Part shown: positions 8,920 to 19,093 of the stretch, in pieces | Layout of the letters: every line of letters begins with the position of its first letter | Position numbering within the stretch: position 1 is the first letter of the stretch | Virus record (IMG/VR): IMGVR_UViG_2758568729_000001 | Span: 1-64,000 of that record | DNA from: a virus | Taxonomy: Duplodnaviria; Caudoviricetes | Length of the DNA stretch: 64,000 bases | Strand: one strand, 5' to 3' | Made by a program: the position numbers and the translations under genes | Notes under the pieces: generated by a model | The model's input: only the letters and a program-made list of their open reading frames with translations | Databases searched by the model: none | Told to the model about the DNA's origin: nothing

Positions 8920-9588
8920 TTACGCCGCCTTCCGGACGGTGGACTGCTGCTGGGCGATGAGCGCGTCGACCTGCGCGCAGGTGAGTCGCCTGATGACCAA
9001 GCGGTGCTGGCGGTAGACCTGCCAGCCGTAGTCGGTCAGCGAGTAGTCACGGGAGTAGCCGTCTCCGGAGAGGGCACCTTCGCTGAAGATTCCCTTCGCG
9101 ACCAGCGACAGGACCGTCTGCCGTTCCTGGTGGTCGCCGTGGAAATGGGCGGTCGACGCCCAGGTCTTCCCACCGGATTCCGCCGCGCGCTCGATCTCCT
9201 CGGCCTGCTTCTCGGAAAGCCGTACACCCCTCGGGGTCGGCTGCTTCGCGTCTTTGGCCGGGATCGGCTTGGCGGCGGCCTCAGCCTCCGCAACCAGCTC
9301 AGCCGGCGCATCCCACGGGCTGCGGCGGTACTGGAACACCAACTCGCCGTACGTGTGCCGCTGCTCGGTCGACCAATCGGCGATCCGGGTGCGTCGCGCC
9401 TTGTGAGTCGGTACGAGGGTGAAGTTTCCGCCGCCGGTTGACTGGCACTCCTGGCCGAATCCGCGCCGGCAGGTCGGGCAGATGACGGCGTCCGATGCCA
9501 TGTAGTAGAGGCGCGTCTGCCGGTAGTCGCCGTTGGCAGCTTCGATCGAGGTGTGGACAAGGTCGACGCTGGTGATCGTGGTGGTCAT
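8920..9588 (-). CDS. Zinc-finger plus winged-helix-like protein
   Basis: CPTC..C...H finger; C-terminal LVAKG...LTDYG wing signature; GGAGG RBS. Confidence 0.65.
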   Translation of the reverse strand: MTTTITSVDLVHTSIEAANGDYRQTRLYYMASDAVICPTCRRGFGQECQSTGGGNFTLVPTHKARRTRIADWSTEQRHTYGELVFQYRRSPWDAPAELVAEAEAAAKPIPAKDAKQPTPRGVRLSEKQAEEIERAAESGGKTWASTAHFHGDHQERQTVLSLVAKGIFSEGALSGDGYSRDYSLTDYGWQVYRQHRLVIRRLTCAQVDALIAQQQSTVRKAA

Positions 9589-9620
9589 CGGCTTGCCCTC
9601 CTGCGGGTCGGCGCTACTTG

Positions 9621-9673
9621 CATCTACCAATCTACGCCGTCCGCCACGATGAAGCTAGTTTATCTATCAAGTT
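9621..9673 (-). promoter_or_regulatory. Double-box promoter
   Basis: AACTTGATAGATA and AGATTGGTAGATG 40 bp apart; TAGATT -10. Confidence 0.7.
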
Positions 9674-9724
9674 AGGCCAAGATCTTTCCGCAGGTCGCAG
9701 GCAACCCGCTGTACCGTGACGCGG

Positions 9725-9761
9725 GGGAGCCCCGGCCGCATATGGCGTGGCCGGGGCTCCC
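9725..9761 (-). terminator. GC-rich hairpin after the 9-aa micro-ORF
   Basis: GGGAGCCCCGGCC / GGCCGGGGCTCCC inverted repeat. Confidence 0.55.
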
Positions 9762-9772
9762 TTCGGTGTGGG

Positions 9773-9802
9773 TCAGACCCACTCGAACGTGCCTCGCTTC
9801 AT
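9773..9802 (-). CDS. Candidate 9-aa micropeptide MKRGTFEWV
   Basis: AAGGAGG RBS 8 nt upstream; only obvious ORF between promoter 9866-9918 and hairpin 9725-9761. Confidence 0.45.
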   Translation of the reverse strand: MKRGTFEWV

Positions 9803-9865
9803 GCGGCCCCCCTCCTTGGTTCGCGAGCCCTCCCTGCGCTGCCCCTCGGCAACACCTCGCCGTTG

Positions 9866-9918
9866 CATCTATCAAATTAAGTGATGCGTACGTCAAACAC
9901 AAGGACATCTATCAAGTT
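9866..9918 (-). promoter_or_regulatory. Double-box promoter
   Basis: Boxes 40 bp apart; TTGTGT-N17-TAATTT. Confidence 0.75.
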
Positions 9919-9938
9919 TTGTCTGTCCTGGACACGAC

Positions 9939-9970
9939 AAAACCCCGGACCCACATGGGGACCGGGGTTC
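9939..9970 (-). terminator. Intrinsic terminator closing the tRNA array
   Basis: AACCCCGG stem pairing with CCGGGGTT followed by T-tract on the minus strand, just after tRNA-Cys. Confidence 0.7.
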
Positions 9971-9993
9971 AGCCACACCACAGCGGACAGCAT

Positions 9994-10067
9994 TGGAGAC
10001 CGAGCAGGGATTCGAACCCTGGTGTGCGGTGTTGCAGACCGCTCCCTAGCCGCTCGGGCACTCGATC
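9994..10067 (-). tRNA. tRNA-Cys(GCA)
   Basis: Cloverleaf; GCGGT-CTGCAAC-ACCGC; GTTCGAATC; encoded CCA. Confidence 0.92.
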
Positions 10068-10079
10068 AAGATGGTGAAG

Positions 10080-10152
10080 TGCCCCCGAGAGGATTCGAAC
10101 CTCCGACCCCCGGCTCCGGAAGCCGGTGCTCTATCCACTGAGCTACGAGGGC
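10080..10152 (-). tRNA. tRNA-Arg(CCG)
   Basis: CCGGC-TTCCGGA-GCCGG; canonical D/T arms. Confidence 0.93.
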
Positions 10153-10273
10153 AGGACCGGCGTCAACGGCGAAGGGCCCACCCGAGGCAAGCGGGCGAGC
10201 CCTTCCGTGTCCGCATGACCAGACAACCCATGGAGGTGGGCAACTACGTCGGATCGTAGCGGTACCGGTGTGC

Positions 10274-10358
10274 TGGTGCGCGTCCCTGGTGCCGACCCAG
10301 GTATGCCCGAAGGCGACGGAGTTACAGTCCGCTGGGCGTGCCGCCGCCCACGACGCGC
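10274..10358 (-). tRNA. tRNA-Tyr(GTA), non-canonical
   Basis: 7-bp acceptor, GCGGA-CTGTAAC-TCCGT, long variable arm, CCA; T-loop GTCGGCA and G8 deviate. Confidence 0.75.
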
Positions 10359-10362
10359 AGAG

Positions 10363-10437
10363 GGTGACTGACGGGGTTTGAACCCGCGAACCTCCCGGAC
10401 CACAACCGGGCGCTCTACCAACTGAGCTACAGCCACC
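10363..10437 (-). tRNA. tRNA-His(GTG)
   Basis: G-1, C73, CCCGG-TTGTGGT-CCGGG. Confidence 0.93.
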
Positions 10438-10450
10438 ATGATCACTTGCG

Positions 10451-10524
10451 TACCCGCGCCTGGGATCGAACCAGGGGCCTCCGCCGTGTGAAAGCGGCGC
10501 TCATCCCAACTGAGCTACACGGGC
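10451..10524 (-). tRNA. tRNA-Val(CAC)
   Basis: CCGCT-TTCACAC-GGCGG. Confidence 0.9.
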
Positions 10525-11054
10525 ATCTCCGTCCGCCCCCGCCGCCAGTACGTCAGCGAGTTCGGGCACAACTGACAACCGCTCACCGGCGGCTCACCAG
10601 GCTTCGGGGCCCACGGCTTCCCCTCGCCGCAGCACATGCCGTCCTCGCGCGGCGCCGGGATGACCGGGGGAGCGGGCACCGCGGCCGGCGGGTCGACGGG
10701 CTGCGGGTTCCGGCCCCGTCGCCCCCACCAGTCACCGGTGTTCAGCTTGTGAGCGGGCGCCGGGTCGTAGTCGTCGGGCGACCAGCCGGGGCACATCGCG
10801 TCCAGGGCGGCGCGCAGCTCCCCTGCCGGTTCCACCCGCACGTCGAGCCGGTTGCCCTCGGTCCCGCTGTCCACGTACTCGCCGAGCTGCCACGTCGCGG
10901 CGGTTTGGGCGGCGGTCAGCGGGCCGGTGACCGCGAACTCCCGGCGCTCCCCGGTTCCCTGAGCGCCGGCCAGGTACAACAGGTGGACCACGGTTGACAG
11001 GCTCTCGACGCCGGGGACGGTGACGTACACGCGGGGCAGGGTCGGATCGGTCAT
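10515..11054 (-). CDS. Hypothetical protein with C-terminal Cys cluster
   Basis: MTDPTLPRVYV...CQLCPNSLTYWR; stop is the T8-A9-G10 of tRNA-Val. Confidence 0.6.
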   Translation of the reverse strand: MTDPTLPRVYVTVPGVESLSTVVHLLYLAGAQGTGERREFAVTGPLTAAQTAATWQLGEYVDSGTEGNRLDVRVEPAGELRAALDAMCPGWSPDDYDPAPAHKLNTGDWWGRRGRNPQPVDPPAAVPAPPVIPAPREDGMCCGEGKPWAPKPGEPPVSGCQLCPNSLTYWRRGRTEMPV

Positions 11055-11079
11055 CCCAGCAGTCTGCACCAGCACGCGG

Positions 11080-11496
11080 CTACAGCTCGTTGCGGCGCTC
11101 CAACTCGCGTATCGCGTGACGGTCACCACGGCTCGCCGCAGTTCGGTACCAGTTCAGCGCCGCAACGCTGTCGCCCAGTTCCTCGCACAGCACGGCGGCG
11201 TTCCACGCAGCTTCAGCGTCCCCAGCTTCGGCGGCTTGCGCGAACCACGGCAGCGCCTCCGGCTTGCGGTTCGCGTCGCCGTCGAGCAGCAGACCGAGGT
11301 TGTTCGCGGCGTCGGAGTCCCCAGCCTCAGCCGCCGCCCGGTACCACCGCTCAGCACCCTCACGGTCGCCTGCCCGGTCCAGAGAGAGCCCCAGGTTGAA
11401 CTGTTCGACGGTGTCCCCGGCGACCGCACCGGCCTGGTGCCGCCGCCCGAGCAGGCGATGCACGGGGGATAACACGCGGGTCAGCAGGTCCGTCAT
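11080..11496 (-). CDS. Sel1-like/TPR repeat protein
   Basis: Repeated A..WY..AAEAGD..AA.NLG. Confidence 0.85.
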   Translation of the reverse strand: MTDLLTRVLSPVHRLLGRRHQAGAVAGDTVEQFNLGLSLDRAGDREGAERWYRAAAEAGDSDAANNLGLLLDGDANRKPEALPWFAQAAEAGDAEAAWNAAVLCEELGDSVAALNWYRTAASRGDRHAIRELERRNEL

Positions 11497-11613
11497 GCCT
11501 ACCACTGTCGCATACTGCCTGGCGGCAGGGCTTGAACAAGTGCGGGGACGCCACGGGGGCGCCGGCAGTTCGGCGCCGGCCCGGCGAGGGCTACTGCACG
11601 TCGGTATGGGAGC

Positions 11614-12363
11614 GTGCATGATGGGCCGGTGGTAGAGAACCCAACTCCCCGCCGCCGGGTGGCGACCGAGTTGAAACGGCTCCGGGAGACGATCGGCGTA
11701 CTCGGCGACGATGTTGCCGCCGCCCTCGGTTGGTCGCAGTCGAAGGTGTCGCGCGTCGAGACCGCCCGGATCGGGATCAACCTCCGGGACCTCGCCACGC
11801 TGCTGCACTACTACGGCGCCCCGTTGGAGGTTCACGCCGAACTGATGGCCGCGACCGCCGACGCCGAGGGCGTCCCCGGGGCGTGGATCGTGCAGGCCAG
11901 CGGGCCACGTCATCCCCGAGCCGGGACCCAACCGATCGGATCCCGCGCCACCTCTGTCCGCCAGTACAGCCCGCTCACCATCCCCGGCCAGTTGCAGCCC
12001 GCCGCTGACCCCAGCTCGCCGAGCTACACGCTCCTGCTGGACGCACGCGTGTTCCTCTCGTGGCCAGGTGACGTGAGCCGCCGGCAGGTCCACGCCCTCC
12101 GGGACCGCGCACAGAAGCCCGGGATCGTCGTCAAGGTGATTCCCCTCGGGGTCGAGCAGGCAGTTACCGCGGCAACGCCGTTCACGATCTACGAGTTCCC
12201 TGCCGCCCCGACCGTTGTCCACGTAGCGACTCAAACGGCGGACCTCTACCTGTCGGCGGCTACCGACGTCCGTACCTATGGGGATGTCTTCGATCGACTC
12301 GTGGCCGACGCGCTTGACATCTCGGCTCCGGTGCAGGGATTCGAACCCCGATTAGGCGGTTAA
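11614..12363 (+). CDS. XRE HTH / DUF5753 (Scr1-type) regulator
   Basis: RRRVATELKRLRE...WSQSKVSRVET; IPGQLQ; PFTIYEF. Confidence 0.8.
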   Translation: MHDGPVVENPTPRRRVATELKRLRETIGVLGDDVAAALGWSQSKVSRVETARIGINLRDLATLLHYYGAPLEVHAELMAATADAEGVPGAWIVQASGPRHPRAGTQPIGSRATSVRQYSPLTIPGQLQPAADPSSPSYTLLLDARVFLSWPGDVSRRQVHALRDRAQKPGIVVKVIPLGVEQAVTAATPFTIYEFPAAPTVVHVATQTADLYLSAATDVRTYGDVFDRLVADALDISAPVQGFEPRLGG

Positions 12364-12396
12364 CAGCCGCCCGTCCTGCCGTTGAACGACACCGGA
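12326..12396 (-). tRNA. tRNA-Asn(GTT)
   Basis: GGCGG-CTGTTAA-CCGCC. Confidence 0.92.
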
Positions 12397-12397
12397 A

Positions 12398-12474
12398 TGG
12401 TAGCGCCGACGGGATTCGAACCCGCGAACTCCGGGTTGAAAGCCCGGCGACTTTAGCCGCTTGTCTACGACGCC
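12398..12474 (-). tRNA. tRNA-Glu(TTC)
   Basis: CCGGG-CTTTCAA-CCCGG; CCA. Confidence 0.92.
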
Positions 12475-12479
12475 ATGCG

Positions 12480-12551
12480 TGCCCCGAGTTGGGTTCGAAC
12501 CAACGGCCTCCGTCGCGTCAGGACGGCGCTCTCCCGCTGAGCTACCGGGAC
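12480..12551 (-). tRNA. tRNA-Val(GAC)
   Basis: CCGTC-CTGACGC-GACGG. Confidence 0.9.
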
Positions 12552-12582
12552 ATGACCTTGCGTTACTGCTACCGTCCCCATC

Positions 12583-12906
12583 GTGACCGACAGCGTGTCG
12601 ACCAGCCGGGCCACCCTTGGAGACTTCCTGACCCGTGCCCGCGAGGCACGCGGCTTCACCCGGACGGACGTCGCCAGGCATATCGGCTGCACCCTGGGAA
12701 AGATCACGGGGATCGAACGGGGCGAGGTACGCACCTCAATCCCCGACCTGCGCGCCCTGCTGGAGATCTACCAGGTCACCGATCCGCAAACCGTGGCTGA
12801 CCTGACGGAACTGGCTCGTGCTACCCGGCGACCGTCACCGCAGTTGGGGGTGCCGGTGCCGCCGAAACGTGGCACGAGCGAAGTTGGGGGCGGGACCCGG
12901 AGTTGA
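12583..12906 (+). CDS. XRE-family HTH protein (HTH only)
   Basis: LGDFLTRAREARG...KITGIERGE...DLRALLEIY. Confidence 0.75.
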   Translation: MTDSVSTSRATLGDFLTRAREARGFTRTDVARHIGCTLGKITGIERGEVRTSIPDLRALLEIYQVTDPQTVADLTELARATRRPSPQLGVPVPPKRGTSEVGGGTRS

Positions 12907-12959
12907 ACCGGGGGCCCGCGGCTTATGAGGCCGCCGCGCTACCACTGCGCCATCCCGCA
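12885..12959 (-). tRNA. tRNA-Met(CAT), atypical 1:72 mismatch
   Basis: GCGGC-CTCATAA-GCCGC; T1:C72; CCA. Confidence 0.85.
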
Positions 12960-12961
12960 AG

Positions 12962-13034
12962 TGCCCCTGTCCGGATTCGAACCGGAAACCCGCCGATTAA
13001 AAGTCGGCTGCTCTGGCCGTTGAGCTACAAGGGC
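12962..13034 (-). tRNA. tRNA-Lys(TTT)
   Basis: GCCGA-CTTTTAA-TCGGC. Confidence 0.93.
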
Positions 13035-13573
13035 TTAGTGCGATCACGTTCTACCGATACCCGCGCCGGGCGGGCGTTGCCATGCCGTGCCAGTTCGGCG
13101 TCTAGATCCGTAACTCGGAGCGCCCGGCGATCGACGTAATCATGGAGTAGTTCAAGGAACGACTTGAAGTCGTGGTTCGGCTGGGCCTCCAACCACCCCA
13201 CGTTCGTGTTGCACTTCCGACAAAGAAGTGCTCGGACGCACCGGCCGCACGATCGCTCGCCGGGGCAGCACCGATGATCGTGGTCGACTGCCATGCGAGT
13301 CTCGTCAAGACCCGTGAAGCACAGGGCACAGAGACCATCCTGGCTGTCCCAGAGTGCTTGCCAGTCTGCGGGCCGGAGTCGGTATAGGGTCCACATCCGG
13401 TTGACTACTCGCCGGTTCGCGTGCTTCTTCAGCCACTCGCTGACGTACGCGCTGTTGCACTTTCGGCAGTAGGTCTGCCGCTTATTCTTTGTGCTGATCG
13501 AGAAGTCGACTATAGGCAACGTCTGCTCGCAACGCGGGCAACGTTTCGGTGTGTCTACTATGGCTGCCGTCAC
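13025..13573 (-). CDS. Endonuclease VII-family nuclease (probable homing endonuclease)
   Basis: CPRC..CRKC; Q.GLCALC...VDHDH...VRALLC..CN. Confidence 0.88.
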   Translation of the reverse strand: MTAAIVDTPKRCPRCEQTLPIVDFSISTKNKRQTYCRKCNSAYVSEWLKKHANRRVVNRMWTLYRLRPADWQALWDSQDGLCALCFTGLDETRMAVDHDHRCCPGERSCGRCVRALLCRKCNTNVGWLEAQPNHDFKSFLELLHDYVDRRALRVTDLDAELARHGNARPARVSVERDRTKPL

Positions 13574-13631
13574 CTTTTAATCATAGACCATTGGCTAAAG
13601 TCCGGAGCCCGGCCATCAGGCGCCGGCGGCA

Positions 13632-13707
13632 TGGTCCCCCGGGCAGGACTCGAACCTGCCACGCCCGCCTTAGGAGTGCGGCGCTCTGTCCTCTGAGCTA
13701 CCGGGGG
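13632..13707 (-). tRNA. tRNA-Arg(CCT)
   Basis: Loop CTCCTAA; CCA. Confidence 0.9.
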
Positions 13708-13710
13708 GAG

Positions 13711-13786
13711 TGGTACGCCGGGTGGGAGTCGAACCCACGGCCTACGGATTAAGAGTCCGCAGCTCTGGCCTCTGAGCTACCGGCGC
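13711..13786 (-). tRNA. tRNA-Lys(CTT)
   Basis: GCGGA-CTCTTAA-TCCGT; CCA. Confidence 0.93.
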
Positions 13787-13790
13787 ATAG

Positions 13791-13873
13791 AGGAAGGTGG
13801 AGGAGTCGAACCCCTGCCGTTGCCGACACCCCGGTTTTCAAGACCGGTCGCCCACCGCTGAGCGGCACCTTCC
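13791..13873 (-). tRNA. tRNA-Ser(TGA) with 8/4 cloverleaf
   Basis: 8-bp acceptor GGAAGGTG/CACCTTCC, 4-bp T stem, 6-bp D stem, long variable arm. Confidence 0.85.
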
Positions 13874-13877
13874 GAAG

Positions 13878-13951
13878 TCGGGTACGAGGGACTTGAACCC
13901 CCGGCCTCGCGGTCCCAAACCGCGCGCTCTTCCAAGCTGAGCTAGTACCCG
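13878..13951 (-). tRNA. tRNA-Pro(TGG)
   Basis: CGCGG-TTTGGGA-CCGCG. Confidence 0.93.
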
Positions 13952-13952
13952 G

Positions 13953-14026
13953 TCGGGTTGACAGGATTTGAACCTGCGCCCTCGTCGTCCCGAACGACGC
14001 GCGCTACCAAACTGCGCTACAACCCG
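13953..14026 (-). tRNA. tRNA-Pro(CGG)
   Basis: CGTCG-TTCGGGA-CGACG. Confidence 0.93.
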
Positions 14027-14030
14027 TAAG

Positions 14031-14104
14031 TCGGGATAGCCGGATTTGAACCGACGACCTCTGCACCCCCAGTGCAGCGCCCTACCAAGCTGGGCCATAT
14101 CCCG
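14031..14104 (-). tRNA. tRNA-Pro(GGG)
   Basis: CTGCA-CTGGGGG-TGCAG. Confidence 0.93.
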
Positions 14105-14109
14105 TTGCG

Positions 14110-14182
14110 TGCCCCTGAGACGAGTCGAACGTCCGACCTCCCGGTTCGTAGCCGGGCGCTCTATCCACTGAGCTACAGGGGC
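14110..14182 (-). tRNA. tRNA-Arg(ACG)
   Basis: CCCGG-CTACGAA-CCGGG. Confidence 0.93.
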
Positions 14183-14318
14183 ATGAGGTGGAATGCCAGC
14201 AGCGTCGTGTGCCATAATGCTGGCTCCCGGAGCCCTTGGGCTCCGGTCACGTGGGAACAGGGATCGCCCCTCCGCTTGTCATGTGCCCCGGAGGGGCTTT
14301 TCTGTGCCCCAAGCCGCG

Positions 14319-14392
14319 TACCGTCGGCGAGAGTCGAACTCGCTGCCTCCGCTGTATCAGAGCGGCGCCCTTACCACCTGGGCCACGACGGC
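14319..14392 (-). tRNA. tRNA-Ile(GAT)
   Basis: CCGCT-CTGATAC-AGCGG. Confidence 0.9.
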
Positions 14393-14396
14393 AAAG

Positions 14397-14481
14397 CGGA
14401 AGCGGAGGGATTTGAACCCCCGGTGGTTTCCCACTCCGCGCTAGCAACGCGGTGCAATAGGCCGGACTCTGCCACGCTTCC
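14397..14481 (-). tRNA. tRNA-Ser(GCT)
   Basis: CCGCG-TTGCTAG-CGCGG; long variable arm; G73. Confidence 0.9.
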
Positions 14482-14486
14482 ATGCG

Positions 14487-14561
14487 CGCCTCGTACGGGA
14501 TTTGAACCCGTGACCTCCGCCGTGACAGGGCGGCGTCCACTCCTGACTGGACCAACGAGAC
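14487..14561 (-). tRNA. tRNA-Asp(GTC)
   Basis: CCGCC-CTGTCAC-GGCGG. Confidence 0.93.
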
Positions 14562-14686
14562 TTGACACCAGGGCGAGAGGCGCTGTCCTGCGCCGCCCGT
14601 ACGGTGGGCCATGACCCCACGCGGCGACGTGTCGTGCGTGACCCTGGTGGACTGTACCGACGTTGCCATGGCGTCGGCCTTGGTCG

Positions 14687-14759
14687 TGGACCCGATCGGT
14701 TTCGAACCGACTGCCTCCGATTTGCAAGAGCGGCGCTCTACCAAATGAGCTACGAGCCC
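14687..14759 (-). tRNA. tRNA-Ala(TGC)
   Basis: G3:U70; loop CTTGCAA. Confidence 0.9.
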
Positions 14760-14773
14760 AAACTGTTGCTGCG

Positions 14774-14848
14774 TACCCGGGGCGGGACTCGAACCCGCAC
14801 AACTCCGCAGTCTGAGTGCGGCGACTTTGCCAATTTGCCCACCCGGGC
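14774..14848 (-). tRNA. tRNA-Leu(CAG), short variable arm
   Basis: CCGCA-CTCAGAC-TGCGG. Confidence 0.88.
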
Positions 14849-14861
14849 AGGTGGTGCTGCG

Positions 14862-14934
14862 TACCGACGCCCGGTCTCGAACCGGGTACCTCCTGGTTAT
14901 GGACCAGGCGCTCTACCTGCTGAGCTACGTCGGC
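14862..14934 (-). tRNA. tRNA-Met/Ile2(CAT), C33
   Basis: CCTGG-TCCATAA-CCAGG. Confidence 0.85.
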
Positions 14935-14935
14935 A

Positions 14936-15012
14936 TGGAGCCGGTGACAGGAATCGAACCCGCGTCCTGCCGCTTACAAGGCGGCTGCTCGACCAACGTG
15001 AGCTACACCGAC
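14936..15012 (-). tRNA. tRNA-Thr(TGT)
   Basis: GCCGC-CTTGTAA-GCGGC; CCA. Confidence 0.92.
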
Positions 15013-15017
15013 GTGCG

Positions 15018-15090
15018 TGCCCTCGGTGCGATTCGAACGCACCCTGGACGGCCCCTCAGACCGCTGCCTCTACCGCTGGGCTACGAGGGC
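15018..15090 (-). tRNA. tRNA-Leu(GAG), short variable arm
   Basis: GCGGT-CTGAGGG-GCCGT. Confidence 0.88.
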
Positions 15091-15096
15091 ATTGCG

Positions 15097-15167
15097 CTCC
15101 CGGACAAGGATTCGAACCTCAGTTCCCTGATCCAGAATCAGGTGTCCTGCCGCTAGACGATCCGGGA
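15097..15167 (-). tRNA. tRNA-Gln(CTG)
   Basis: CCTGA-TTCTGGA-TCAGG. Confidence 0.9.
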
Positions 15168-15204
15168 AGGGGCCGGCGGGGCTGCGGGATCCCGCCGGCC
15201 GGTA

Positions 15205-15648
15205 TCAGCGCTGAGCGAGCGTCGCCCAGGTCGGGGACGCAGGCTGGACCCGCAGCATCATCCCCGCCTCGGCGGGGGTCCGGTCGCCCTTGCGCTGGTT
15301 GCAGTCGTAGCAGCTCGCCACGGTGTTCTTCCACGTGTTCCGGCCGCCCCGGGAGCGGGGGAGGATGTGGTCGACGGTGGTGGCCGCGGCCGGGCAGTAC
15401 CCGCACCGGTGGCCGTCGCGGTTGAGGACACCGCGTTTCGACCAGGCGGGGCCGGCGGTGTACCGCCACTTGGTGACCACGTACCGGACCAGGCGGAGCA
15501 CCTTCGGCATCGGGAAGACACCGATCAGCCGGTCCGGCTCGGCTTCGTGGATCTCGGCGACCTGGCGCAGCAGCATCCGGATCGCGTGTTTGACCGGGAC
15601 CCGGTGTAGCGGGCCGAGGTCGGCGTTGAGGATCAGTACGGCGTCCAC
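15205..15648 (-). CDS. HNH endonuclease
   Basis: RDGHRCGYC...TVDHILPRSRGG.NTW.N.V.SC..CN..KG. Confidence 0.92.
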   Translation of the reverse strand: MDAVLILNADLGPLHRVPVKHAIRMLLRQVAEIHEAEPDRLIGVFPMPKVLRLVRYVVTKWRYTAGPAWSKRGVLNRDGHRCGYCPAAATTVDHILPRSRGGRNTWKNTVASCYDCNQRKGDRTPAEAGMMLRVQPASPTWATLAQR

Positions 15649-15708
15649 CAGGTCCCTCCTTTCGGTTCTGGTTGGTTGGACAGATTGACAGATGATCCGT
15701 CAATCAAG

Positions 15709-15779
15709 AGCGGCTGCGGGGAATCGAACCCCGGTATCCACCATGGCAAGGTGGCGCTCTGCCGTTGAGCTACAGCCGC
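15709..15779 (-). tRNA. tRNA-Gly(GCC)
   Basis: CCACC-TTGCCAT-GGTGG; U73. Confidence 0.92.
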
Positions 15780-15781
15780 AG

Positions 15782-15851
15782 AGCCTTCGACGGGCCTCGA
15801 ACCCGTAACTCCCGTCGTACCAGGACGGGGCCCGACCGGTCGGGCGAAGGC
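15782..15851 (-). tRNA. tRNA-Thr(GGT), aberrant D-arm
   Basis: Acceptor GCCTTCG/CGAAGGC; CCGTC-CTGGTAC-GACGG; D-arm is the hairpin CCCGACCGGTCGGG with no U8-A9. Confidence 0.7.
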
Positions 15852-15852
15852 G

Positions 15853-15929
15853 TGGTGTCCTGGGCGAGAGTCGAACTCGCACTGTGCGCGTTTTGAAGGC
15901 GCTGCCTCCTGCCGTTGGGCTACCAGGAC
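15853..15929 (-). tRNA. tRNA-Leu(CAA), short variable arm
   Basis: Loop TTCAAAA, C31:C39 mismatch; CCA. Confidence 0.85.
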
Positions 15930-16160
15930 CCAACTCGGGGAGTTAAGTAGAAGTTCCATGCTTTCGGTTGACCTTGGGGGGTCCGCCTAGCGTGCTTGGA
16001 TCACGAAATCGGTTCATGATCCGGAAACATGAGGTCAACCTGAACGGCCACTCGGGTCAGGATCAGTAAGGACCATTGATCCACCCCACACGAGGCGCCT
16101 ATGTTGGGCCACCTCAGCGGTTTGACCAGCTCAACCCGCCCGACCTGGGGGAAGGTCACC

Positions 16161-16598
16161 ATGTCACGACAGATCATCACCGTCATCACCGACGACCTCG
16201 ACGGCACCGAAGGCGCTGAGACCGTCCATTTCGCCTTCGAGGGCCGCGAGTACCGAATCGACCTCAGCGACCACAACCGCCGCCGACTGCTGGCCCGCCT
16301 GGAGCCGTACATCAACGCCGGGTTGCCCGTCCGCGGTGACCGCACCGCGCAGGCACCGGCGCAAGACCGGGCCAGGCGTGCACAGCTCCGAAAGATGCGG
16401 GACTGGTGGAACACCAACCACACCGCGTTGGGGCTGCCCGAGCCGAAGGGCTACGGGCGGATCCCGGCCAAGGTAGAGGAGGCGTACCGGGTGCACGGCA
16501 ACCGGCAGGTGCCGGTGGTTGCTCGCCCGGTGGAACCGGTCGTGCCGCGGTTGCGTGTGGTGCCGCCGATCCCCGAGGCTACGTTCGCCGCCGGGTGA
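16161..16598 (+). CDS. lsr2: Lsr2-family nucleoid protein
   Basis: DDLDG...ETVHFAFEGREYRIDLS..N; C-terminal MRDW...GRIP.KV.EAY. Confidence 0.9.
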   Translation: MSRQIITVITDDLDGTEGAETVHFAFEGREYRIDLSDHNRRRLLARLEPYINAGLPVRGDRTAQAPAQDRARRAQLRKMRDWWNTNHTALGLPEPKGYGRIPAKVEEAYRVHGNRQVPVVARPVEPVVPRLRVVPPIPEATFAAG

Positions 16599-16600
16599 AG

Positions 16601-16674
16601 CTCCGGGTGCAGGAATCGAACCTGCGGGCCCCGCGTCCAAAGCGCGGTCACGGACGCCAACGCCGTACCCCGGA
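16601..16674 (-). tRNA. tRNA-Gln(TTG), atypical D-arm
   Basis: CCGCG-CTTTGGA-CGCGG; canonical T arm; G7:A66 mismatch. Confidence 0.8.
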
Positions 16675-16679
16675 AAGAG

Positions 16680-16750
16680 AGCGGCCACGGGGAATCGAAC
16701 CCCGGTTCGCTGGGTGGAAACCAGCAGCTCTACCACTGAGCTATGGCCGC
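16680..16750 (-). tRNA. tRNA-Gly(TCC)
   Basis: GCTGG-TTTCCAC-CCAGC. Confidence 0.92.
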
Positions 16751-16902
16751 GAACGGTGGCGCGGTTCCATCGTCGCTGAGGACTTGCCCCGCGCCACCGG
16801 TTGTCGGTCTACCCCTCGTCTCCGACTGCGCGGTCCATCTCGTCTCTCCGCGCTCCCGTCCCGCTGGCGGGATATCCACTTCTCGCAGGCCAGCGGGCTA
16901 TG

Positions 16903-16977
16903 TAGGCCAGGCCGGGCTTGAACCGGCGTTCTCCGCCTTGAGAGAGCGGTGAGCTTTGCCAACAGCTCCACTAGCCC
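16903..16977 (-). tRNA. tRNA-Glu(CTC)
   Basis: CCGCT-CTCTCAA-GGCGG. Confidence 0.9.
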
Positions 16978-16978
16978 A

Positions 16979-17027
16979 TGGAGCTGACAGGGGCCGGGTG
17001 CCTCGCCCGGGAGGTTCCCCCGTCAAC
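16979..17027 (-). ncRNA. CCA-ended mini tRNA-like RNA (candidate)
   Basis: 11-bp closing stem, 5-bp/7-nt hairpin, T-CCA end; packed between two tRNAs with 1-nt gaps. Confidence 0.45.
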
Positions 17028-17028
17028 G

Positions 17029-17101
17029 TGCCTACCCTCCGACTCGAACGGAGACCCTTCCGGATTTCACCCGGACGCTCGACCAATCGAGCTAGGTAGG
17101 C
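17029..17101 (-). tRNA. tRNA-Phe(GAA)
   Basis: TCCGG-GTGAAAT-CCGGA. Confidence 0.88.
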
Positions 17102-17190
17102 GTGAAGATCGGGTGTCGCTCTGCCCGCACTCGCGGGGCGGGGACCAACCGCCCGCCGGGTGGTCAGCCCGACGTATTAACGACACCCAG

Positions 17191-17263
17191 TGGACCTGCC
17201 CGGATTCGAACCGGGGACCTCTTCCCTGCCGAGGAAGCGCGCTACCAACTGCGCCACAAGCCC
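17191..17263 (-). tRNA. tRNA-Ala(GGC), C33
   Basis: G3:U70; CTTCC-TCGGCAG-GGAAG. Confidence 0.88.
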
Positions 17264-17381
17264 ATTGCGACAACCCCGGCCGGCGGCGGGCGTGTGCTGC
17301 CGCCGGCCGGGTGTCGTTGTATATGCCATCCGCTGTGGAGTTGAGATCGAACATTCCCGCCGGCCGAAGTCGGGGGATGAG

Positions 17382-17454
17382 CAGGGGTGACAGGACTTGA
17401 ACCTGCTGCCTGCGGTTTTGGAGACCGCCGCTCTACCTGTTGAGCTACACCCCT
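17382..17454 (-). tRNA. tRNA-Trp(CCA), first gene of the array
   Basis: GCGGT-CTCCAAA-ACCGC. Confidence 0.93.
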
Positions 17455-17475
17455 ATGAAGTTGTTGCTGTGCAAC

Positions 17476-17511
17476 AAAAAAGCCGCCCGGTCCCTTTCGG
17501 GTGGGCGGCTT
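17476..17511 (-). terminator. Attenuator terminator upstream of the tRNA array
   Basis: AAGCCGCCC-ACCCGAAAGGGACC-GGGCGGCTT plus T-tract, ending about 20 nt before tRNA-Trp. Confidence 0.85.
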
Positions 17512-17527
17512 CGCGGTTCGCATCGCG

Positions 17528-17650
17528 CTAGCCGCGCCACCTGCCCAGCTTGTAGTTATCGGCGGAGCTTTCGGTCCCAACGATGGGCGTGCACCACTCA
17601 CCGAGCGACAACATGTGTCGCTGCGGTGCGAAGGCGGCTTGCCGCATCAT
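17528..17650 (-). CDS. Putative 40-aa attenuator leader peptide (all 20 amino acids)
   Basis: MMRQAAFAPQRHMLSLGEWCTPIVGTESSADNYKLGRWRG; GGGAG RBS 7 nt upstream; stop 16 nt before terminator. Confidence 0.7.
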   Translation of the reverse strand: MMRQAAFAPQRHMLSLGEWCTPIVGTESSADNYKLGRWRG

Positions 17651-17742
17651 GTCCGTGCTCCCTGCGTCGGTGTTGCTGTGAAAGGTAGTTCCTGGGCTGT
17701 CGCGTCGGCAACGTGTTTCCGGTGCTGCGGCCCGTGACGTCA

Positions 17743-17787
17743 ACGGTACGGGTCGACCGCCGTCAACGCAATGACATCTACCAAGTT
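17743..17787 (-). promoter_or_regulatory. tRNA-array promoter with single upstream box
   Basis: AACTTGGTAGATG then TTGCGT-N17-TACCGT. Confidence 0.7.
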
Positions 17788-17805
17788 TCTTGGTGTGTTG
17801 GCAGA

Positions 17806-18174
17806 TCAAACCGCGAGCAGTGTCACGTCCATGCCCCGGTACAGGCCAGGCTCGCAGGTCACCACGGCCGCGCGCATGGCCCGTGCCTCGTGGACGGCGT
17901 GCCGAACGGACAGCTCCCCGGCCCAGCCGCCGATCTCAATCGCGGCGTGCTGGGCGAGGGGGAGTGGTAGGACGCCGGGGGACAGGAGTAGGGCGTGCCA
18001 CGCGTCCATGCTTGCCCCGAGTTTGGCTTGGGCGTCGGCGATGGCGGTGGTGGGAAGCAGGAGGTTGACGGTGCCGGCGTCGGCTTGGTCGAGCAGGGCC
18101 ATCAGGCGGGGGTGGGCGCCGAAGAAGGCCACCATCGCGGACGCGTCCAAGACGCGAGGTGGGCGGTGCCTCAC
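17806..18174 (-). CDS. PIN-domain (VapC-like) protein
   Basis: N-terminal VLDASA; size and C-terminal AVVT.E fit a PIN fold. Confidence 0.75.
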   Translation of the reverse strand: MRHRPPRVLDASAMVAFFGAHPRLMALLDQADAGTVNLLLPTTAIADAQAKLGASMDAWHALLLSPGVLPLPLAQHAAIEIGGWAGELSVRHAVHEARAMRAAVVTCEPGLYRGMDVTLLAV

Positions 18175-18338
18175 GCGGCGCGGCGCTCGCCGTACCGGGC
18201 GGCCAAGTCCAGATCGGCGGCGTCCTGCTCGCGCTCCCAGGCGGCGGCCTCAACCTCGCTGAGCGGGCCAGGGTGCGGAACACCGAGCACGGCGCAGAAC
18301 CGCTCGGAGGCGGTCATGGGTCGCTGGTCGTCGGCCAT
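18171..18338 (-). CDS. Putative antitoxin partner of the PIN protein
   Basis: 55-aa ORF with GTGA overlap to the PIN gene. Confidence 0.55.
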   Translation of the reverse strand: MADDQRPMTASERFCAVLGVPHPGPLSEVEAAAWEREQDAADLDLAARYGERRAA

Positions 18339-18396
18339 GTCCGGATGCTACCCAACACGGGCATGATCATGTTTGTGTCGGCGTGGCGTGTCCGGG

Positions 18397-18714
18397 TCAC
18401 GCCGCTTCTCGGTCAGCCGCCTCCCGCGCGTGCCGGCTCATCGCTTTTGTAGCCTGGTACAGCAGCGCCACCGCCTTGTCCTGCGCGTACGCGGCTTGCA
18501 GCAGCGCCCTTCGTTCCTCGACGTTGGCAATCCGGTCACTCGCTGCGATCTCCCGGATCGCGCGGTGGAGTGTGACGGCCGTGGTTAGTAGCGCTTCGGT
18601 GAGGTGTTGGGGGTCGCCGGGGTCTGTGCCTGCCGTGAGGGACTGGCTGAGGTTGAGTCCGGCGCGTTGGAATTTGTGGGCGAGGTCCGGGACTGGCGGC
18701 GAGACATGATCCAC
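18397..18714 (-). CDS. Hypothetical protein
   Basis: Helical ORF; start uncertain. Confidence 0.4.
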   Translation of the reverse strand: MDHVSPPVPDLAHKFQRAGLNLSQSLTAGTDPGDPQHLTEALLTTAVTLHRAIREIAASDRIANVEERRALLQAAYAQDKAVALLYQATKAMSRHAREAADREAA

Positions 18715-18826
18715 ATGATGGATCTTGCCAGGCCGGATCAACCGAAAAACGCCAGCCGGCCCCGAACCGCCACGGCGACCTCCCTGGCCAACTCCCGGCC
18801 CGCACGGCACTCCTCGACGAATGTGC

Positions 18827-19093
18827 TCACTGGCGTTCCTCACTACCCGCTGCGGGCTGCCGGTCCAGCCACCACTGCGGCACCCTGAGCAGGCTCGGAG
18901 TCCACCACAGGCACCGGCCCGTAAGGCGGTAACCCGCGCTCGCGGACGTGTACCGCATTTCCACCCTCACCGCCCGCCGGGTCACCGACACTTCCCGCAC
19001 CACACCCTCCCGGAGCTTCGGGTAGGCGCGACCATCGAACTCGTAGCAGAGCACAGGACCGTCGATGTGCGCTGCGGCTTCCGCCAGATTCAC
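18827..19093 (-). CDS. Hypothetical protein
   Basis: GTGA overlap chain. Confidence 0.5.
   Translation of the reverse strand: MNLAEAAAHIDGPVLCYEFDGRAYPKLREGVVREVSVTRRAVRVEMRYTSASAGYRLTGRCLWWTPSLLRVPQWWLDRQPAAGSEERQ

Follow-up and report, generated by a model that had tools for sequence, protein, structure and literature searches.

In enterobacteria, biosynthetic genes are controlled by the classical attenuators trpL and hisL and by the multivalent thrL and ilv leaders, in which the codons for one to three amino acids recur. Plasmids, phages, and islands commonly carry long tRNA arrays, and the timing of and reason for their expression are poorly understood. Here we analyzed a DNA stretch of 64,000 nucleotides (nt), referred to as the window (positions 1 to 64,000 of the virus record IMGVR_UViG_2758568729_000001; Duplodnaviria; Caudoviricetes), in which an array of 35 tRNA genes is preceded by a short leader containing an open reading frame (ORF) and a terminator. 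We found that this leader is probably a leader-peptide, or upstream ORF (uORF), transcription attenuator that holds the supernumerary tRNA operon silent during smooth translation.

The closest described switch is the whiB7/wblC attenuator, which consists of an AT-box promoter, a uORF, a Rho-independent terminator, and an antiterminator involving the end of the uORF, and in which a ribosome stall leads to read-through (PMC10727445; 10.1101/2023.06.02.543512). At whiB7, read-through is induced when tRNAs, synthetases, or amino-acid synthesis are knocked down, and a whiB7 uORF without Trp codons loses the response to Trp, showing that uORF composition sets specificity (10.1101/2023.06.02.543512). 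Among tRNA arrays, the trn operon of Anabaena PCC 7120 stays off unless translation is impaired and shares its regulation with an RNA repair ligase; control of the operon was attributed to direct repeats at the promoter and a presumed repressor, and the words attenuator, leader, and terminator are absent from that paper (PMC8421152). A term search of the papers on mycobacterial arrays (PMC5966550, PMC12803027) found no description of a promoter, terminator, or leader, and our full-text literature search found nothing on tRNA arrays with a leader peptide or with WhiB7.

The array in the window resembles those of Anabaena (PMC8421152) and Mycobacterium (PMC5966550, PMC12803027) in that 20-40 supernumerary tRNA genes form a block that has spread horizontally. 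Its 35 tRNAs occupy 7.5 kb on one strand and comprise all 20 isotypes, as the initial annotation of this locus, made from the sequence alone, implied when it spoke of a full set, with 34 anticodons. The 8.74-Mb genome encodes 78 further tRNAs elsewhere, which cover all 20 isotypes and represent every array anticodon; identity between array tRNAs and housekeeping tRNAs that share an anticodon is 55-93%. Being dense, encoded on one strand, supernumerary, and inclusive of most isotypes, this is a long tRNA array (L-array).

The leader, the terminator, and the array all lie on the minus strand. Their elements are listed below in window positions, where "family" refers to the related leaders described further on.

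17771-17743, minus strand: distal promoter look-alike (TTGCGT, 17 nt, TACCGT), present in the sequence and outside the family-conserved position
17719-17714, minus strand: A-rich box GAAACA, 2-3 nt 5' of the -35 hexamer, at the position of a WhiB7-type AT box in the family alignment
17711-17706, minus strand: conserved -35 hexamer TTGCCG, at the conserved family position
17687-17682, minus strand: conserved -10 hexamer TACCTT, at the conserved family position
17662-17658, minus strand: Shine-Dalgarno (SD) sequence GGGAG, 7 nt 5' of the ATG
17650-17528, minus strand: leader ORF of 40 codons plus TAG, with 20 different amino acids
17628-17599, minus strand: hairpin H1 inside the leader ORF, at about codons 8-17, from RNA folding
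17541-17530, minus strand: 5' strand of the antiterminator (A box), from the last four codons to the first base of the stop codon, pairing with 17510-17500
17512-17476, minus strand: intrinsic terminator, with a hairpin at 17512-17479 followed by a U6 run to 17476 (-23.9 kcal/mol by folding)
17454-17381, minus strand: tRNA-Trp, the first gene of the array (ARAGORN and Rfam)
17454-9994, minus strand: tRNA array of 35 genes (ARAGORN and Rfam)

The leader ORF reaches all 20 amino acids by codon 34 and uses 34 different codons, among them TTG, CTC, and CTG, the Leu codons to which the array's three Leu anticodons correspond. The composition of the leader is far beyond chance: this genome has 17,643 stop-to-stop ORFs with a length of 37-46 codons, and only 0.006% of them contain all 20 amino acids. 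The terminator lies about 25 nt from tRNA-Trp, counted from the U run. The hairpin, which has an internal loop, was absent from the listing of a consensus terminator scan and is clear on folding. The competing antiterminator pairs 17541-17530 with 17510-17500 through 11 bp with one bulge and has an additional inner 4-bp stem, with a folding energy of -27.2 kcal/mol. Sequence reading and folding thus recovered the SD, the 40-codon ORF, the terminator, and the antiterminator where the initial annotation had placed them; its codon and amino-acid counts, the three Leu matches, and the tRNA-Trp with 34 further tRNAs behind the terminator were likewise reproduced.

To compare this leader with related ones, we searched 401 genomes of the family Micromonosporaceae with the leader DNA alone and found matches in 148 of them (E<=0.01). 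The comparative set comprises 80 of the best matching places, each with about 13 kb of downstream sequence. In 73 of the 80 loci, tRNAs on the same strand directly follow the leader match, forming arrays of 1-37 genes, and 45 of 69 arrays begin with tRNA-Trp. The leader is kept in 76 of the 80 loci; its ORF, which starts with ATG or GTG, spans 31-46 codons (median 42.5) in the same register, and 15-23 nt separate its stop codon from the first paired base of the terminator. A GGAG-type SD with spacing like that in the window was present in all eight leaders that were first read without a filter; its presence in 76 of 76 holds by construction, as the parser demanded such a sequence 4-10 nt upstream. 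The gaps within the ORF part of the alignment are multiples of three even though the alignment was codon-unaware. The leader peptides, in turn, are less than 50% identical even inside one clade. The widely kept codons are the first ones, a central Arg and Gly, and the last five, while the middle is not conserved in sequence. The check proposed in the initial annotation, a comparison of the regions upstream of related arrays, therefore found the uORF together with its terminator and antiterminator in 76 diverged leaders. TAG ends 62 of the 76 leader ORFs; the long ORFs of this genome end in TGA in 4157 cases and in TAG in 1491. The leader stop codon sits in an internal loop of the antiterminator.

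Outside the family, a BLAST search at the order level found no match in 269 genomes of 18 other families. One out-of-family array (G050), found through its tRNA-Trp, has a recognizable leader. A pattern scan of the whole collection, members of the family included, returned mostly chance matches in GC-rich genomes; among the matches listed, a tRNA followed within 400 nt at 3 of 120 places. One of these three, in Asanoa iriomotensis, is a clear array of 17 tRNAs starting with tRNA-Trp, and its leader, which had not been used in training, was recognized at 130 bits by covariance model R1. The plasmid pCPAA3 of Curtobacterium pusillum (L266:1-14301) carries 35 tRNAs and a tmRNA in the 14.3 kb read, again with tRNA-Trp first. 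Upstream of them are a 44-codon ORF in which all 20 amino acids occur and a long hairpin that lacks a clear U run. Model R1 does not recognize this leader; by analogy, it may represent the same design in another order, arisen independently or strongly diverged. BLAST searches of plasmids and phages matched only the tRNA-Trp. In the M. avium plasmid pS2b, no comparable uORF and terminator were seen in the region before tRNA-Trp; a T-rich box, TTGACA, and a -10-like hexamer lie there in a WhiB7-type layout (L141:210-260). In a Mycolicibacterium plasmid, tRNA-Trp lies inside the array and is not the first gene.

We then examined whether the competing structures are retained across the family. The terminator stem is near-invariant in the 76 leaders, with the outermost pair switching between A-U and C-G in 13 of them; the median energy is -23.5 to -23.8 kcal/mol, and most leaders have 4-7 T in the 9 nt after the stem. 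The 14-nt stretch that best complements the 5' arm of the terminator falls in the last 4-6 codons (starting 12-22 nt before the stop codon) in 70 of 76 leaders. The duplexes between the A box and the 5' arm range from -15 to -25 kcal/mol, with a mean of -18.6 compared with -13.8 for shuffled arms, and the antiterminator segment, at a median of -28.5 kcal/mol, is more stable than the terminator. We modeled the effect of a ribosome in 16 leaders from different lineages by masking its footprint at a point when the 3' arm has not yet been made. With no ribosome, or with the A site 10 or more codons from the stop codon, about 75% of the bases of the 5' arm were predicted to pair with the last codons; with the A site on the stop codon or within 6 codons of it, the modeled pairing dropped to 0-0.2. 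The masking of the antiterminator by a ribosome at the stop codon, as originally proposed, was thus reproduced in the folding model. With an SD and a short ORF, a terminator before the genes, and a predicted ribosome-dependent antiterminator, the leader has the features of a uORF attenuator as judged from these models.

To determine whether the amino-acid diversity of the window leader is shared, we grouped the related loci into full arrays with 15 or more isotypes (n=21) and decayed arrays with 8 or fewer isotypes (n=42). The leaders of full arrays contain a mean of 18.7 different amino acids; 14 have 19 or 20, including 7 with all 20. A null model drawn from the codon-position base composition of the same leaders gave 15.9±1.5 (P(>=19)=0.034, P(20)=0.005), so the leaders of full arrays exceed what is found in composition-matched ORFs, a comparison of the kind that the initial annotation had called for. 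The other two sense frames of the same DNA contain 12.9 and 13.9 different amino acids, and 40-residue windows of the long ORFs of this genome contain 12.8. The leaders of decayed arrays, with 15.1, are close to their own null of 14.8. When the full-array leaders were thinned by hand to 15 lineages, 9 had 19 or 20 amino acids (~3e-10, binomial with the composition null). In all but one of the full-array leaders, the last five codons add no new amino-acid type. The diversity excess is limited to the reading frame and to the leaders of full arrays. The number of isotypes and leader diversity also show a rank correlation of 0.66. We prefer the excess over the null as evidence because the correlation rests on few independent decay events.

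The composition of the leader also tracks the isotype content of its own array. In the 32 arrays that have at least 10 isotypes, amino acids absent from the leader usually correspond to isotypes absent from the array (pooled odds ratio 10). The null model for this matching fixes the number missing per locus and per amino acid, and thereby controls for richness and for a general loss of AT-rich codons; under this null, the overlap of missing amino acids and missing isotypes was 42 compared with 28.8±2.9 expected (p<=0.0007), and after thinning to 22 lineages it was 35 compared with 22.0±2.3. Individual loci illustrate the match. A 12-tRNA array with 11 isotypes (L100) has a 35-codon leader that uses those 11 plus Thr (12 amino acids), and an array without Phe, Ile, Lys, Asn, and Thr (L116) has a leader without Phe, Ile, Lys, and Asn. 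In a third locus (L120), the leader after the start codon lacks Asp, Phe, Ile, Lys, Met, and Tyr, all six of which are among the nine isotypes missing from its array. In the window, 38 of 39 leader codons can be read by array tRNAs under wobble rules.

The promoter of the family was analyzed by aligning the leaders on the -10 hexamer. In 73 of the 76 leaders, the -35 hexamer is TTGC followed by two variable bases, with a spacer of 17-18 nt; the -10 hexamer is TACCGT or TACCTT in 51 of these 73 promoters, and in most of them 37-52 nt separate it from the start codon. In the 73 related promoters, A/T makes up 75-100% at positions -8 to -4 from the TTG of the -35 hexamer, compared with a background of 30%, and three GC-rich bases come next. 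All 56 WhiB7 sites identified by chromatin immunoprecipitation (ChIP) in M. abscessus were reported to have an AT-rich sequence 3 bp 5' of the -35 hexamer (PMC10727445). The promoter of the tRNA array therefore looks WhiB7-type in layout, and the array may depend on WhiB7, although the AT box of the window (AAACA) is weaker than that of the family. The initial annotation had assigned the promoter to TTGCGT-N17-TACCGT; that sequence is present, yet the family-conserved promoter lies 55-60 nt downstream of it. The distal look-alike may be a second copy or a tandem promoter. An AT-rich stretch lies just upstream of it.

The genome's own whiB7 is located elsewhere (G000 ~3314989-3315551, minus strand), where an AT-box promoter is followed by a uORF of 111 codons and a terminator. 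This uORF carries repeated Glu-Leu-Val-Gln units. A strict WhiB7-type motif occurs at about 16 sites in the genome, including whiB7, and the array promoter of the window does not fit this strict form; the ten ORFs scanned downstream of strict-motif sites include a two-cassette ABC ATPase and four MFS pumps. The array leader shares with the whiB7/wblC attenuator the promoter type, the uORF, the Rho-independent terminator, the antiterminator at the uORF end, and, as a prediction for the array leader, read-through upon stalling, with uORF composition deciding which shortages are sensed (PMC10727445; 10.1101/2023.06.02.543512). Unlike that leader, it precedes tRNA genes rather than a transcription factor, and no whiB7 lies directly downstream. 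The window leader has about 40 codons compared with 111 in the whiB7 leader of this genome, and no likeness between the two was seen by eye in the unaligned sequences. Whereas whiB7 uORFs are alanine-enriched, the array leaders are maximally diverse and track the tRNA content of their operon.

These similarities bear on the strongest alternative, namely that the leader is a general translation-stress attenuator of the whiB7 kind, which answers ribosome-targeting antibiotics or slow translation and in which leader composition has no sensing role. The architecture shared with this genome's whiB7 leader, the WhiB7-type layout of the family promoters, and the induction of the Anabaena tRNA array by translation inhibitors are all in its favor. 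It leaves unexplained, however, why the diversity excess occurs only before full arrays and why the missing amino acids match the missing isotypes, and we consider it unlikely as a complete account. The general-stress and composition-sensing readings are not exclusive, as antibiotics would trip the same switch.

A structured RNA, riboswitch-like or tRNA-binding, of which the open frame is a by-product, could also account for part of the conservation. H1 inside the ORF keeps pairing through changed stems: its stem sequences differ between lineages while complementarity is kept in a sequence-by-sequence check. RNAalifold on a MAFFT alignment recovered the terminator alone, missing H1 because loop indels misalign it. 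The conserved N- and C-terminal codons moreover overlap RNA elements. On the other hand, the SD spacing, the start codon, the stop position, and the multiples-of-three gaps are conserved, and the diversity excess is confined to the reading frame. An Rfam search of positions 9000-19000 identified only tRNAs even at E<=1, with no T-box or other curated RNA leader, and the middle of the leader is not conserved in sequence. We therefore regard an RNA-only origin of the frame as very improbable. Within the attenuator, H1 may act as a pausing or synchronizing hairpin.

The conserved C-terminus of the leader, together with the preference for TAG, which ends only about a quarter of the long ORFs in this genome, raises the alternative of nascent-peptide arrest, in which Gly-Arg-Trp-Arg-Gly followed by TAG stalls termination through a small molecule or the activity of release factor 1. 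This is highly unlikely: the conserved C-terminal codons form the antiterminator strand, so the RNA accounts for their conservation; a ribosome held at the stop codon would mask that strand and favor termination; and the C-terminus varies between clades, with Trp and Arg interchanging. That the terminator merely ends an upstream unit, with the small ORF being a chance occurrence or a separate micro-gene and the array transcribed independently, is hardly credible, since a minus-strand ORF does end at 17806, about 300 nt upstream of the terminator, but is not conserved in related loci, while arrays in many genera are accompanied by the promoter, SD, ORF, and terminator together and the roughly 25 nt between the U run and tRNA-Trp are too short for a promoter.

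The attenuator favored here would operate as follows. Transcription would start from the promoter with the WhiB7-type layout, and a ribosome would load on the 40-codon leader. A ribosome that reaches the TAG would cover the last four codons, which form the 5' strand of the antiterminator; the terminator would then form 15 nt further on, and RNA polymerase would halt about 25 nt short of tRNA-Trp. A stall more than about 7-9 codons upstream of the stop codon, or failure of the ribosome to load, would let the A box pair with the 5' arm of the terminator once that arm is made, and with the antiterminator formed, the polymerase would read into the tRNA array. Selection would stock the leader with the amino acids whose tRNAs the array carries, and thus a shortage of almost any usable tRNA could trip the switch. 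The newly made tRNAs would relieve the stall, providing negative feedback.

As proposed here, the array leader resembles trpL, hisL, thrL, and the ilv leaders, which also combine a short translated leader with alternative hairpins, and in which the position of the stop codon makes a ribosome that completes the leader favor the terminator. It differs from them in that it samples up to twenty amino acids, mostly once or twice each, and in that it would control tRNAs. Unlike the enterobacterial leaders, it also has no clear anti-antiterminator, so an untranslated ORF, i.e., no translation at all, is predicted to give read-through as well. The translation-coupled, all-amino-acid attenuator put forward in the initial annotation is thus supported by conservation, frame-specific diversity, and leader-array matching; what did not hold was its choice of promoter. 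The triggers that it named, nuclease attack, starvation, and antibiotics, are candidates.

Several points weigh against the proposed attenuator. The evidence is entirely computational, consisting of sequence comparison and folding. The link between diversity and array size rests on few independent decay events, and a test of array size against diversity in independent pairs found no significance with the only 6 pairs that were usable. The leaders of some full arrays reach only 16-17 amino acids. The exact anticodon is present in the leader's own array for 58% of leader codons compared with 45% of codons in other frames (full arrays), which is a mild difference. In equilibrium folds of whole leaders without a ribosome, the terminator still wins in about two-thirds of cases; the model is therefore kinetic, as in classical attenuators. 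The antiterminator uses two pairing registers in different clades, and hence what is conserved is the potential to pair rather than clean covariation. Finally, extra tRNA is no cure for amino-acid starvation, and the benefit would depend on a deficit at the level of tRNA. Taken with leader-array matching and the repair genes described below, this points to tRNA-level deficits, such as cleavage or depletion, as a putative selective trigger.

Phage T4 uses a Pnkp-Rnl1 pair to repair tRNA cut by an anticodon nuclease, and phage tRNA genes serve as counter-measures to anticodon nucleases. In the window, the following genes lie on the strand of the array:

30544-29447, minus strand: GIY-YIG homing-endonuclease-type gene upstream of the array
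15703-15119, minus strand: HNH-type homing endonuclease-like ORF inside the array, whose sole database relative carries HNH domains
13573-13025, minus strand: ORF with an Endonuclease VII domain inside the array (Pfam PF02945, E = 2.8e-14)
5494-4388, minus strand: RNA ligase of the T4 Rnl1 type (Pfam RNA_lig_T4_1)
4430-3462, minus strand: polynucleotide kinase-phosphatase (Pfam HAD_PNKP and AAA_33; TIGR02308, a match that belongs to the ligase and kinase-phosphatase region 5494-3462)

The ligase and the kinase-phosphatase are arranged in tandem about 4.5 kb beyond the last tRNA. The same pair was found in a related locus (L118:1335-3382, locus reverse-complemented) about 0.75 kb after the leader (~408-576), which contains only 14 different amino acids; no tRNA was present on the 3.8-kb stretch read. 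The enzyme pair known from T4 is thus present downstream on the strand of the array here and behind the leader in L118. No nuclease or defense system was identified, and by analogy this gene context suggests a possible link to tRNA damage.

The HNH-like ORF recurs in 28 related loci at a corresponding position, 1-2 kb inside the array, and in two loci where no tRNAs are left (L135 and L136) it is still found behind the leader. A function was sought for the embedded ORFs 10515-11129 and 16001-16423 and none was found. Several ORFs near the array match only phage protein families of unknown function, and for this reason the island carrying the array may be phage-derived.

These observations lead to a broader proposal, which is quite possible and which we put forward tentatively. 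The leader would be a self-inventory of the array, keeping the amino acids that the array supplies and dropping the others, and would form a closed circuit that detects the loss of any tRNA species, for example to anticodon nucleases or tRNase toxins, and answers with a replacement set under a WhiB7-type promoter beside tRNA repair enzymes. This might be a general rule for the mobile tRNA arrays of bacteria and phages.

The proposed gating of a tRNA array would be a new use of a known principle, i.e., that uORF composition decides what is sensed. The initial annotation knew of no description of such an arrangement; our full-text and term searches likewise found none for arrays, and composition-set sensing has already been published for whiB7. 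If the proposed attenuator is correct, a built-in sensor, co-varying in composition with the tRNAs that it releases, reads the decoding of every amino acid and provides spare tRNAs on demand, and attenuation would reach beyond the supply of amino acids to that of tRNAs. The leader would also be a compact natural reporter of codon-specific translation stress. tRNA arrays would then join the WhiB7 translation-stress response of actinomycetes, which is relevant to intrinsic antibiotic tolerance.

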